A stretch of DNA of 63,747 nucleotides, the filler included, from Octopus bimaculoides (Eukaryota): the NCBI RefSeq assembly GCF_001194135.2. It is 4 parts of 4 records of this genome, joined end to end, with 100 filler letters (N's around TTAATTAATTAA, not from the genome) between each part and the next. Parts side by side here need not be neighbours in the genome. Positions count along the whole stretch, not along the records: positions 1 to 21,749 come from NC_069009.1; positions 21,850 to 49,187 come from NC_068999.1; positions 49,288 to 62,382 come from NC_068981.1; 1 more part is not named here. One strand, given 5' to 3'. The translations under genes and the position numbers were made by a program. Each line of letters opens with the position of its first letter. Position 1 is the first letter of the stretch. The notes under the pieces are model-generated. The model did no database searches and was not told where the DNA came from. It saw only the letters and a list, made by a program, of their open reading frames with translations. Of this stretch, positions 10,155 through 55,690 are shown piece after piece.

Positions 10155-10240
10155 CCCTGTTGTTGATGTTGAAACCTGTTCTTTCTCTATTGGCAAGAAA
10201 TTTTGAAATAAACTGAATAATGACATACATACATACATAA
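10155..10240 (+). mobile_element. 3' tail of RLE-type LINE embedded in (CATA)n
   Basis: CCTGTTGTTGATGTTGAAA..GTTCTTTCTCTATTGGCAAGAAATTTTGAAATAAACTGAATAATGA matches the reverse complement of 17765-17875. Confidence 0.7.
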
Positions 10241-11130
10241 AGAAAATACCAACAGACAGAGTTGACCATATTGAGACCAATGGGTCCAAAGAATACTGGT
10301 GGGACTCAGAAACTGAAATAGCCACCAAGTTAAACCACAACCGGTCAGATATTGTTGTATGGGAACACAAGGAAAAGCTATGTTCTGTTGTGGAAATCAG
10401 CTACCCTCTGGACACGAATGTGGTTAGAAAAATACAAAAGAAAGAGACCATCTATGGACCATTGATGAGGTGTTTGCTGATCCAGTACCCAAGATGCACT
10501 TTCAGCTTCATACCTATTATTATTGGAGTAACAGAATACAAACCGACCTGTCTGGAGCAAAGAATGGCTCAGCTTGGGATCTTGGGTAGGGAATGCAATT
10601 CCTTAATTCATATGCTACAAGTGATCGTGATATCCAGGGCTATAAAAATCTCTAAGACCTTTTTAAGATTTAAAGGAGGATGGTTTAAACAAGATATTTT
10701 TATTCACAACCTTGCTACCAAGTCGGGGGCCAGTCAAAATTTAGTCTAAATTAAAAAAGAGAAAGAGAAGATATACATATTCATACATAAACTGCAAATT
10801 ATCATATCTGGAAACATAAAAATCTGCAAGACTTTCTTAAAATTTAAAGGTTGATGGTTAAAACAAAATACTTTCCTTCACAACCTTGCTACCAAGTCGG
10901 GGGCCAGTCAAAATTTAGTCAATTAAAAAAGAGAAAGAGAAGATATACATATTCATACATAAACTACAAATTATCATATCTGGAAACATAAAAATCTGCA
11001 AGACTTTCTTAAAATTAAAAGGATGATGGTTAAAACAAAGTACTTTCCTTCACAACCTTGTTAAGCATTGGTTGACTGGTCAGAATTTACTCCAAATTTT
11101 AAAAGAAAAAAGAGAAAAATTTAAAAAATA
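10241..11130 (+). mobile_element. 5'-truncated RLE-endonuclease non-LTR retrotransposon with triplicated 3' end
   Basis: One open frame encodes KEYWWDSETEIATKLNHNRSDIVVWEHKEKLCSVVEISYPLD...KKETIYGPL...FIPIIIG...IKISKTFLRF, a PD..(D/E)xK restriction-like endonuclease as in R4/NeSL-type elements. It is followed by three ~173-bp tandem copies of the terminus. Confidence 0.8.
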
Positions 11131-11269
11131 TATATATATATATATATATATATATATATATAAACAAAGAAGGTGGAACCCTTGGAGTGCCATGATGTCA
11201 CCAAAAGTGTAGATTGTGTCACATTTCTGTGGTCAACAGCTGCCCAGAAATGTCATCAAGGTACTACTG

Positions 11270-11480
11270 GCTCACTGGGGAGGGAATGCAAATCCTTAAT
11301 TCATATGCTACAAACAATCACAATATCTGGAAGTATAAAAACCTGCAACACCTTCCTACGACTTAGAAGATGATGAACAAAACAACATACTTTTCTCCAC
11401 AACCTTGCCACCAAGCACGTGGCCAGCCAAAATTTACTCTCAATTAAAAAGAGAAAGAAAAGATACATACATACATGTGT
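11270..11480 (+). mobile_element. Further 3'-end copy of the same RLE LINE
   Basis: LGRECKSLIHMLQTITISGSIKTCNTFLRL plus the shared 3' UTR ending in (TACA)n. Confidence 0.75.
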
Positions 11481-52789: not shown

Positions 52790-53400
52790 CGATACACAGA
52801 AAATATTCCTATACACGGCTTGAGTACCTGAGGCATATTTTCCTCGCTGTGTCCCTGGGATGATCTTCGGATGCGTTCTTGATCTTTGCCACCAGTTCGG
52901 CCTTTATATTCTTTATATTGCAGCAGATTAGTTGATATGTAGCTCAACCGCCCTTCACACATAGTAAACCATAGGATTACAATCGGGGATAATTTTGAGG
53001 CTCGGTATTGGGGCTGGTGAAGTCGTATAAATTCTCAGACAACCAATTCTGATTCTTTATGACAAGGATCCGAATCCTACTACTTCGCATACGGTCTTCC
53101 AGCAGCAACCCTTTCCTGTCAGGGTGTGACCACAGTCTCCTCTAGCTACTCATAGCTGCCCAAATTGGGCCAAGGACCTGTTCAAAGATGTCTGGCGGCA
53201 TGGCAACAAGAGACACCAAATGACACCAAATGACCATCACAATTTAGGGGAACCTGGCTTTCACGAACACCATATCACGTTTTACGGTCTTTTCAATGTT
53301 CCTAGAGCGCGGAGCAATAGTTATGATCTCGACATTTTGACACCCAACGTGCATCATCTGATATACAGATGGCTTTCAGTTCTCCATGCCAACTCACTTT
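52790..53400 (-). mobile_element. Decayed Tc1/mariner-superfamily transposase, maT/DD37D-like
   Basis: Minus strand across frameshifts: MPPDIFEQ...LEETVVTP...(Q)DSDPCHK..QNWLSENLYDFTSPN...PDCNPMVYYV...KAELVAKIKN...PRDT.RK.C. The WPPxSPDCNPMDY-type motif is decayed. Confidence 0.7.
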
Positions 53401-55084
53401 AGCTCAACTACACCTGTAATCTTTATGCTCTCCAATGCCATCGACGATGATGATGATTGTGATAAAACTGTGGGATATTATAGAGACGGTAACGTTGTTG
53501 GTGGTGGCGTGGGAGAAGACGGAATGTACTGCAACTCGATATAATAATCAGAAGGGGAAGAATGGTCATGTTATTGTTGTTAATGATGATGACGATGATG
53601 ACGACGACGACGACGACGACGACGACGATGATGATGATGTAATTATGATGTGTGATGCTGATATCGTCGAGGACATAAAACGTTAATGATGACGACGATG
53701 ATGGTGATGATAATGATGATGAGGAGGATCGCGATCATTTTATTAGAACTGTTTAATGTACCTTTTATTACCTCTCTCTCTTTCTGTCTCTCTCTCTTAC
53801 ACACACTCTGTCTCACACATACATACACACAAACACACACACACACACACACACACACTCTCTCTCTCTCTCTCTCTCTCTCTCTCTCTCTCTCTCTCTC
53901 TCTCTCTCTCTCTCTCTCTCTCTCTCTCTCTCTCTCTCTTCTATCCGCCCCGGAAACGCCTACATAGACATTTTTTCTTGGTATTTATCTTAGTATATAT
54001 TTTGCTGTCTTGGTTCTTGTGTTTTGAGATTTGATAAACATAAACAATAAAAATGAAAAATATAAAAAAAAATCTTGCAAAAAAAAAACATAACGGAAGA
54101 ATTATAAAAGCTAATCTCTTCCTCTTCCCTCTACCCTTCGTTTTATTTCGATTTAAAATATTTATATTGTGGAGCCACCCAGATAGAAATATGTCTGTCA
54201 AGTTCCAATAGTGTGCCAACACAGTTGAGACATAAAGACATAGCATTATAAGGAGGGGGTAAGACAAATGGGGAGAAATGCATTCATGTACAAACGCACA
54301 CATAAACACACACATAAACACACACATAAACACACATAAACACACACATAAACACACACACACGCACACACATACATACACGCACGCACGCACACACACA
54401 CTCACACACATAAAAATATGGGACGATCCAAAACGAGAGAGAGTGAGGGAGAGAGAGAGAGAGAGAGAGAGAGAGAGACAGAGAGAGAGAGAGAGAAAGA
54501 AGGACCCTAAGGCTCAGAGTGATGGGTGGAGTAGATGTGGTGGAGTAGCAGTAGTCGGAGATGAGGGCATCATATTAGGCATCTAGATTTATAAAGCTGG
54601 ATACCTTTCGATGTTCGCACATGAATACACACAAACACACATACGCATGCACATACACACTCACACACACACACACACACACACACACACACACACACGC
54701 ATCTATCTACCTATCTATCGATCTCTCTACCTACCTATCTATCGATCTCTCTATCTACCTATCTATCGATCTCTCTATCTACCTATCTATCGATCTCTCT
54801 ATCTATCTATCTATCTATTCATTTTAAATTTTAATACAAGGCCTGCAATTTCGGGGAAAGTGGGTAAATCGATCGCATCGATCCCCGGTGGTTTTTATTT
54901 TATGGACATCGATGAAAGGCAAGGTGAATCTCAACGAAGTTTGACCTCAGAAAGTTAAGACAAACGAAATGTATTTTGCACTGCGTGCTATTGATTCTAC
55001 AACCTAGCTGACTTATGTATGCATATATGCTAATATATAGGTACTCATAATACATACATACATACATACATACATACATACATA

Positions 55085-55690
55085 GAATGTCACCTGCAGG
55101 ATAGCTCGTACATTAAAGGCATGTTAGAACCATGACGTATTCATATCTAAAAAAACAAGGAATATTGGTGGAGCAATCTGGTAAATACAGCAATTCGGTA
55201 CAAACATATCAAACCTGAAGTTGTTCCATGGGACAGTGAACAAAAGGCATGCACTGTTGTAAGGATCAGCTTCCCAGCGGATGTGTATGTACAATCAAAA
55301 GTCTAGGACAAAGAGAACATTTATGGTGAATAAATCCGGAACTTTCAGCTCTTGTACCCTGACAATAAATTCTCATTTGAATCTATTATCATTGGTGCAT
55401 TAGGTTATGTACCAGCAATTTTACACAAAAACCTAGAAATTCTTGGTTTATTCGGAGAAAAAGCAAAATATACTGACGCAGATTTTCTAAATTCAATCTA
55501 TTGGGTGCACAGTTAAGTTTCACTAGAGATTCAAAAAAATTTTCCATCTGTGATTTTTTAAGTTAATAGGTATGCAGACTTGTGTGTACGCACCGAACTG
55601 ACAGTTCAACCACATATTTAAAATCACCGGAAATTCTCTTAACTTTGAAAGTCTTGTCAGTTTGTTAGCGACCGATTTGAACTAAAATAA
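55085..55690 (+). mobile_element. 5'-truncated RLE LINE starting at (TACA)n
   Basis: KEYWWSNLVNTAIRYKHIKPEVVPWDSEQKACTVVRISFPADV...KENIYGE.IRNFQLLYPD.KF.F..IIIGALG; same endonuclease family as 10241-10680. Confidence 0.8.

Follow-up and report, generated by a model that had tools for sequence, protein, structure and literature searches.

The window, i.e. the whole stretch of 63,747 nucleotides of Octopus bimaculoides DNA (GCF_001194135.2) that we analysed, holds decayed copies of a single R4/Dong-like LINE lineage, which fall into three or more diverged families. They are listed here with the array upstream of the nested cluster and a Dong-like element that served as internal control (RLE, restriction-like endonuclease).

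9967..10155, + strand: long (CATA)n array 5' of the nested cluster
10157..10239, + strand: piece A, a short, internally deleted 3' end tailed by 17 bp of CATA; a weak candidate for a separate junction
10240..10789, + strand: copy B, a 5'-truncated RLE domain and the 3' UTR; the CATA tail of piece A served as its insertion site
10790..10961, + strand: B2, a tandem-duplication chimera and no independent insertion
10962..11162, + strand: copy B3, a short 3' end starting within B's imperfect CATA tail and ending in (TA)17
11163..11476, + strand: copy C, starting in the CCHC region right after (TA)17, with an internal deletion and a 14-bp CATA tail
11831..11996, + strand: an 18-bp CATA run followed by copy D, a short 3' end from 11849
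11997..12160, + strand: piece H, tentative, directly 3' of the tail of D (E 0.95 to protein P0001)
16640..16848, - strand: copy G, RLE C-terminus, absent from the list of the first-pass annotation
17754..18210, - strand: copy E, a CATA run and RLE C-terminus from 18185
24407..28620, - strand: internal control, a SINE-interrupted Dong-like R4 element whose 5' junction carries (TAA)n(CAA)n
36169..37430, + strand: N-terminal third of the ORF with a Myb-like start (ATG at 36285), after a degenerate CATA array that extends to 36235
55050..55700, + strand: copy F of a third family, a 35-bp CATA run, RLE domain and 3' UTR

The lineage encodes a single ORF with a Myb-like start, a reverse transcriptase (RT), a CCHC motif and an RLE, and in a profile search the window copies were recovered as fragments of the RT/CCHC/RLE layout of an intact relative, L001, which is described below. 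Copy B matched the profile with 139 bits and is 50% identical to the Argonauta protein P0365, while the tentative piece H was not recovered by this search. The piece that begins at 36236, a candidate for the true 5' end, carries numerous stops and frameshifts; it aligns to residues 2-342 in full-length proteins related to the RLE pieces, best P0286 at 56%. The B-type copies are 75-90% alike, whereas copy B and the piece at 55085 share only ~38% protein identity, which led us to reject the reading of the first-pass annotation that all pieces form a single family; its assignment to an RLE-type LINE was upheld, for a lineage of several families.

To place this lineage we built an RT phylogeny, as the first-pass annotation had proposed, and the lineage formed a clade separate from Dong-like elements (SH-aLRT 100) in what is a quick, midpoint-rooted tree, built without published R4/Dong/Rex6 references or a Hero/NeSL outgroup. 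Its closest relatives outside the lineage in this tree are Dong-like proteins, one of them from Pediculus, and RT identity between the two groups is ~40%. In the RLE tree the lineage was recovered with an SH-aLRT of 98, and the window copies B, E and F fell inside it together with the read-through proteins described below. The N-terminus of the lineage aligns to that of Dong-like proteins with an HHalign probability of 94%, and its lead in Atlas is Rap1-Myb at 0.84, below the Atlas mark of 0.9. Neither a Myb nor an APE family was among 25 of the 36 Pfam families matched by full-length proteins, and the RLE motif is C-terminal. An N-terminal arm motif was found in 46 of 49 lineage proteins against 0 of 46 Dong-like proteins, with a pattern that was derived from the lineage proteins themselves. 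The 3' UTR hairpin is common to seven sequences, of which one, L001 alone, individually folds better than its shuffles (z -2.6). Judged by sequence, RT, CCHC and a predicted C-terminal PD-(D/E)xK-type endonuclease lie in one ORF, and the insertions lie in a microsatellite, both as in the R4/Dong clade, whose members insert in rDNA or microsatellites. It is not Dong proper, as the flanks are CATA and not (TAA)n and the RT falls outside the Dong-like clade.

We then examined the junctions in the window, which were said to abut CATA arrays at tails and truncation points alike. CATA borders most of the 5' truncations, seven of ten lying 0-54 bp past a same-strand perfect CATA run of at least 12 bp. 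The distance is zero at 10240, 11849 and 18185 (- strand), and the 5' end of copy G (~16803, - strand) lies 12-33 bp past a 33-bp run. For the pieces at 55085 and 36236 it is 0-45 bp and 0-54 bp, respectively, these ranges being set by eye versus by protein homology, with ~50 bp of uncertainty. The remaining three junctions do not follow this rule: 11163 lies in (TA)17, the run at 10962 is imperfect, and at 11997, a tentative junction, it measures no more than 6 bp. The first of these corresponds to the copy described as exceptional at its 5' end at 11270; exceptional it is, and its start really lies at ~11163 in (TA)n. A random window position abuts such a run in 0.28% of cases and lies within 60 bp of one in 1.85%. 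Local rates within 1.5 kb of five separate loci were 0.033, 0.023, 0.116, 0.037 and 0.045, and multiplying these conservative rates over the five loci gives ~1.5e-7, so that the expected enrichment over the local background is borne out within the window. No opposite (TATG) orientation occurred among the junction flanks examined, in line with the fixed array orientation relative to the element that had been claimed. Tails fared less well, being short stretches of perfect CATA of at least 12 bp in three of eight, degenerate in three, (TA)n in one and not seen in one. Reuse of an element's tail as target is seen in the nested copies at 10157-12000. A target-site duplication would be invisible inside a repeat. 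Short microhomologies were noticed at the junctions of B3, D and E, and in a post hoc comparison six of seven junction runs, including L001, ended in CATA or ATAC against 11 of 31 other runs.

Two candidate junctions were rejected as independent truncations. The start at 10155, listed earlier among unrelated 5' truncation points, proved a weak site: piece A is very deep in genomic contigs, other contigs run CATA-like sequence into the same start, and the 17767-17880 piece, the same 3' piece (94% over 52 bp), also follows a CATA/CA tract. The start at 10790 was rejected because B2 is a chimera produced by tandem duplication, its 5' half being 96% like the following copy and its 3' half 97% like the preceding one, and it was removed ahead of the junction count. 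The 3' region of copy E comprises an inner CATA/CA tract, an A-type end and a 13-bp CATA tail. For the A-type end we also considered a Penelope-like origin with a putative hammerhead; Rfam returned no ribozyme, and as this end carries the 3' motif of the lineage, it was kept with the lineage, with doubt. A search of L001 for a ribozyme also found none. No 5' junction of other B-type copies was recovered in 24 of the 1251 loose ends of reads on 10157-10800, and RNA reads lie on both strands there, which gives no evidence of element-driven expression.

Furthermore, we looked outside the window, using an amino-acid protein pattern that is blind to the flanks. L001, the sole external DNA locus of the lineage obtained, which may be assembly-collapsed from several copies, is an intact 4.1-kb relative flanked on either side by ~115 bp of 99%-pure (ATAC)n. 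Its ORF of 1172 aa is intact, with Pfam RVT_1, CCHC and the RPD...E and FIDD motifs. Four of 47 proteins carried a translated sense (ACAT)n stretch before their homologous part, as did none of 19 additional lineage proteins, giving 4 of 66 truncated relatives overall, and ACAT ranked top of 86 units in this read-through test. For the units tested there was no antisense read-through and none in 631 internal segments. The four read-through proteins represent three families on contigs of 0.47-3.0 Mb. The same CATA unit and strand are found again in other hosts and between families that are no more than 33-38% alike, while a cluster of four proteins (P0034) shows (CTTG/ACTT)n in place of ACAT. L001 and the four read-through relatives independently support a fixed-orientation (CATA)n preference.

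Other elements were examined for the same habit. Dong-like elements carry (TAA)n, including the one in the window; among eight fetched Dong-like loci with ends read, four had (TAA)n and none CATA. None of five SINE 5' ends in the window lies near sense CATA. In the nested cluster one RTE-like fragment, too, is flanked by CATA runs, which speaks against our reading. Scans of viral contigs found no member of the lineage; of the prokaryote genome scans, one was blank and the other gave 13 loci, all at most 33% identical and none of the lineage. An additional search for relatives gained only Dong-like pieces, and a near-length homologue search with the RLE fragment returned no match.

Taken together, we consider it likely (probability about 0.7) that this is a distinct R4/Dong-like lineage inserted in sense orientation in (CATA)n, whose own protein probably nicks the repeat and whose RNA, with a predicted (CAUA)n end, primes there. 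The fixed siting in CATA is likely due to its own DNA-cutting protein targeting the repeat. By analogy with R2, the protein would bind the stem-loop close to the 3' end of the RNA, the Myb-like domain and lineage-specific basic arm may read the CATA repeat, and the RLE would nick the (TATG) strand. The predicted (CAUA)n end of the RNA would prime reverse transcription at the nick, and the truncated cDNA would, again as in R2, join an upstream part of the same array; such joining would leave CATA on both sides and a fresh short target at each tail.

Identical flanks and orientation are predicted if a lax endonuclease cuts at AT-rich sites and the (CAUA)n tail pairs with nicked (TATG)n, no repeat-specific nuclease being needed. 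Tail-target pairing has been proposed for RTE and other LINEs (PMC6007223), the microhomologies at B3, D and E are in its favour, and the (TA)n exception would fit partial pairing. However, pairing needs few bases, so short ATAC sites should dominate, and the upstream runs are instead 12-140 bp long; R2Bm needs no such pairing, and target choice goes with the clade of the protein and with the N-terminal arm of that clade. We therefore regard this explanation as unlikely. Arrays might also have grown by slippage from a tail and small target duplication after insertion at a short ATA-type seed, in line with the known seeding of microsatellites by non-LTR elements (PMC3812793) and with the degenerate or (TA)n sequence of several tails; yet the upstream arrays are usually longer than the tails, and an identical unit and strand in families so diverged and in other hosts makes this very improbable. 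Least probable of all is chance in a microsatellite-rich genome, helped by template jumping, tandem duplication and passive accumulation. No tetranucleotide class is commoner in the window than ACAT, one nested cluster accounts for six of the ten junctions, and a further copy there is a duplication. Against this, four isolated loci each abut or almost abut a CATA run, the window's Dong-like element and five SINE starts lack sense CATA, and of the out-of-sample evidence, L001 and the read-through relatives, L001 already largely refutes it.

The lineage was also thought to help explain the abundance of (CATA)n; that it does so to any great extent was not supported. Only 10 of the 26 CATA loci in the window are touched by a copy and 16 touch none, and three perfect tails contribute 44 of 711 bp of CATA; the lineage is thus not the main source of these arrays, and the CATA richness of such genomes stays unexplained by it.

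Among known systems, Dong (Bombyx Dong, DongAg, DongBg, ostracod Dong1/2; R4 clade) is nearest in ORF layout, with an N-terminal SANT/Myb-like domain, RT and C-terminal RLE in a single ORF and insertion in microsatellites (PMC7998251, PMC3812793). Its target is (TAA)n, whereas the present lineage has (CATA)n, a separate RT clade and its own N-terminal arm. The first-pass annotation named no (CATA)n-specific family; Waldo (WaldoAg1/2, WaldoFs1; R1 clade) does target ACAY microsatellites, including ACAT (PMC3812793), with an APE-type endonuclease and in insects, unlike the RLE of the present lineage, and the shared target would have been reached independently. For RLE elements, a literature search with Repbase and key papers outside its reach returned no report of a CATA/ACAY target. 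Togen (NeSL-related; (TG)n) and microsatellite-specific Hero families also encode an RLE (PMC4640811); going by descriptions alone, they belong to other clades with other repeat units. The sole solved relatives by sequence are R2 elements (R2Bm, R2Tg; E 3.5e-27 to 2e-20), the source of the proposed nick-and-prime mechanism, which differ in N-terminal zinc fingers and a single 28S rDNA target site.

It is conceivable, though we lean somewhat against it, that an undescribed sister lineage of Dong, present in cephalopods and many other hosts with more than 50 protein clusters, has targeted (CATA)n since its origin, with Myb-like and basic-arm reading, a conserved 3' hairpin and at least one switch to a CTTA/CTTG-like unit. 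If so, it would form with TAA-targeting Dong a natural series on the retargeting of RLE retrotransposons, and would have converged on the target of the APE-type Waldo. To our knowledge, RLE target choice and its change are known in detail for R2 only. L001, intact and full-length with the architecture of Dong and another repeat, allows swaps that assay whether the target is determined by the protein or by the RNA, a question that bears on retargeting RLE enzymes for gene insertion. In octopus, 'Dong-R4' ranks among the major LINE classes and has been active recently (PMC13282606); our results refine this annotation, splitting it into two or more lineages that differ in target.

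Translation and searches of the window, in whose DNA microsatellites and gaps are abundant, recovered these pieces, together with a Dong-like neighbour:

10240, 11163, 55085 (+) and 16803, 18185 (-): C-terminal restriction-like endonuclease (RLE) fragments
10790, 10962, 11849: shorter 3' ends
36285-37430: N-terminal third of the ORF
24407-28620 (-): Dong-like R4 element, near-complete but broken, its 5' junction marked by (TAA)n(CAA)n

The C-terminal fragments bear out the first-pass annotation in assigning these pieces to an RLE-type LINE. The N-terminal piece overlaps none of the others and matches residues 2-342 of the RLE pieces' full-length relatives (E 8e-14), and the closest named relative of the pieces is an Argonauta hians protein (50% over 143 aa to the 10240 piece). 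Stops, frameshifts or truncation break every copy. A single family, as had been proposed, is not what we found, since DNA identity among B-type copies runs at 75-90%, yet copy B (10240-10789) and the 55085 piece share only about 38% of residues. The 10790 copy, considered as an independent insertion, proved to be a tandem-duplication chimera and was left out of the junction count.

Candidate 5' junctions were scored against perfect same-strand CATA runs of at least 12 bp, ranges reflecting the junction by eye versus the first protein match:

10157: 1 bp from a CATA run
10240: 0 bp
11849: 0 bp
18185 (-): 0 bp
16803 (-): 12-33 bp
55085: 0-45 bp
36236: 0-54 bp
11163: miss, in (TA)17
10962: miss, in an imperfect CATA run
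11997: miss, a doubtful piece

In the window, 7 of the 10 candidate junctions lay within 54 bp of such a run, against a background of 0.28% abutting and 1.85% within 60 bp. The claim of the first-pass annotation that CATA adjoins the 5' junctions stands for 10240, 11849, 18185 (-), 55085 and 36236, and the copy at 11270 that it named as an exception is indeed one, with its junction (11163) in (TA)17 and not in CATA. Junction 10157 is a poor witness, because the same end at 17767-17880 is likewise preceded by a CATA/CA tract and because CATA-like sequence repeatedly enters that start in genomic contigs (among the 12 rows listed out of 78). With the nested cluster counted as one locus and conservative distances used, local rates at five loci (0.033, 0.023, 0.116, 0.037 and 0.045) give a product of about 1.5e-7; this is overstated, since the unit was picked, out of 86 possible ones, with the data already in view, and since two loci are neighbours, and the real probability is weaker, though still small. 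At the 3' tails CATA was perfect in 3 of 8 copies and degenerate in another 3, one copy carrying (TA)n and one showing none. Junction runs end in CATA or ATAC in 6/7 cases versus 11/31 runs elsewhere, a post hoc comparison that hints at a fixed cut phase.

The first-pass annotation had also suggested that the element could help explain the abundance of CATA. This found no support: copies adjoin 10 of the 26 CATA loci (345 of 711 bp), most of these loci being upstream targets, and the three tails of perfect CATA contribute 44 bp.

Outside the window, JGI metagenomes were scanned for an amino-acid pattern drawn from the RLE alignment, and one of 52 candidate stretches, L001, proved to be a relative. 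This 4125-bp contig carries an intact 1172-aa ORF flanked at both ends by (ATAC)n, which on the coding strand extends for about 115 bp at 99% purity. Measured through its 99%-identical cluster representative, its identity to the Argonauta protein is 45%, so that it belongs to a different family and likely comes from a different host; several copies may have been collapsed into this contig during assembly. We also asked which microsatellite is translated ahead of 5'-truncated RLE homologues. Sense (ACAT)n was read through in 4/47 testable proteins, (CTTG/ACTT)n in 1/47 and the antisense unit in 0/47, and with nine units examined none of 631 internal segments scored. Another 19 proteins of the lineage added no ACAT case, but three further members of the CTTG/ACTT cluster. 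Since the extensions are, for the most part, probably element sequence in a shifted frame, 4/66 is a floor for ACAT and not a rate. The contigs that bear the four ACAT proteins measure 0.47-3.0 Mb, and the proteins represent three families, 33-37% alike. The P0034 protein cluster (P0402-P0410), also of the lineage, reads (CTTG)n/(ACTT)n and not CATA at its 5' junction, a possible target switch. Among Dong-like proteins, 1/37 reads through (AAC/AAT)n; at eight distinct Dong-like loci with ends inspected, (TAA)n stood at the 5' junction in four, three started inside the element, one junction lay outside the view, and CATA was seen at none.

A search with the L001 reverse transcriptase (RT) gave, among the best 120 of 362 matches, at least about 55 clusters at about 50% identity or more, followed by a drop to about 40%. 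In a quick, midpoint-rooted RT tree (57 rows subsampled from 118) the lineage received an SH-aLRT of 100 and the window's TAA element grouped among Dong-like proteins; in an RLE tree of 41 rows, copies B, E (17754-18210, -) and F (55050-55700, +), the representative of L001, and P0037, P0055, P0075 and P0034 from the read-through set all fell on the lineage side (98). Both trees cover proteins recovered by search together with window sequences, and the placement relative to published R4, Dong, Rex6 or Hero sequences is provisional. The lineage N-terminus aligns with that of Dong-like proteins (HHalign 94%), described as SANT/Myb-like in sections of PMC7998251, and is preceded by a basic arm in 46/49 lineage versus 0/46 Dong-like proteins, by a pattern drawn from the lineage. 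A 27-nt 3' UTR motif occurs six times in the window, always at lineage ends, versus 0.24 expected, a partly circular result as the motif was drawn from these copies; among 21 loci it occurs once, in L001. The L001 hairpin, when mapped onto seven sequences, gave 79% paired cells, with covariation matched by 1/500 shuffles, and only L001 folds well alone.

Taken together, a (CATA)n preference in this R4/Dong-like lineage is real and clade-linked, and position, orientation, nesting in earlier tails and a clade-specific repeat unit are established. We consider that the repeat is probably chosen through protein recognition (roughly 0.70), though sequence by itself does not separate this from tail-guided priming. 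By analogy with R2, the only solved relatives, the protein would bind the 3' hairpin of the element RNA, the Myb-like domain and basic arm would recognise the repeat, the protein would nick the TATG strand, the (CAUA)n tail would aid cDNA priming, and the truncated 5' end would be joined to the upstream array. Such priming, with a lax nuclease, appears unlikely. Expansion of CATA arrays after insertion is weaker and quite improbable, and chance is weaker too and the least credible of all.

This choice of CATA is a variant of known microsatellite targeting. Sections of PMC7998251 state that R4/Dong elements insert into rDNA or microsatellites, with (TAA)n the target in most insects, molluscs and cnidarians; portions of PMC3812793 list Waldo (ACAY), Mino (AC), Kibi (TC), Koshi (TTC) and Dong (TAA), and of PMC4640811 Togen (TG)n and some Hero families. 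The preference is convergent with Waldo's ACAY target. Dong-R4 is listed as active in Octopus vulgaris in PMC13282606, in whose main text, as far as covered, the word 'target' does not occur; parts of PMC6007223, PMC8967140, PMC9115989, PMC10294476, PMC8557442 and PMC13580325 also served as background. Among the matches listed by full-text literature searches, no element of the RLE type had CATA/ACAT as its target; one may be described in Repbase, Dfam, Kojima and Fujiwara 2004 or Fell 2025, which lay outside their scope.

Within the window, no TAA tail was visible at the 3' end of the Dong-like element, which carries a SINE within its RLE region. None of five SINE starts lay near sense CATA, nor had any a 12-bp TATG run in its 45-bp flank (0/5). 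The fragment 11624-11830 (-), which we take by its C-terminal motif to be an RTE-like 3' fragment, counts against the CATA-lineage reading: it sits in opposite orientation between CATA runs inside the nested cluster, with (TATG)n on its own strand at both flanks. Between two CATA runs lies also a 120-bp stretch (11477-11597) whose A-rich end resembles a LINE 3' end, with no match in the rest of the window.

The A-type 3' end is about 30 to several hundred times deeper than the RLE region in genomic contigs, summed depth not being copy number; the deep end corresponds to 10179-10222 and 17767-17880 (-), and its loose contig ends run on as CATA in both DNA runs. This suggests that some copies are very short, or that a non-autonomous partner has this end in common. 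Eukaryotic R4-type LINE contigs were met within prokaryote genome records, named isolates included (L002-L008, L016, L018, L019), probably as contamination; in L018 one copy starts in another's poly(A)/TAA tail. A long ORF with a low-complexity insert (18255-19790, -), which appears to resemble a STEAP-type metalloreductase, has its stop codon about 70 bp upstream of copy E. Other neighbours are an L1/Tx1-type RT and zf-RVT fragment bounded by gaps (49236-49810, +), two copies of a short repeat within TA/CATA tracts (17283-17474 and 17571-17766) with inverted ends that we assume to be mariner-like, presumed mariner transposase-like fragments (6650-7018 and 62770-63504), and an imperfect coding-like tandem repeat (38281-38724), rich in His, Val, Phe, Arg or Tyr, and Glu by frame.
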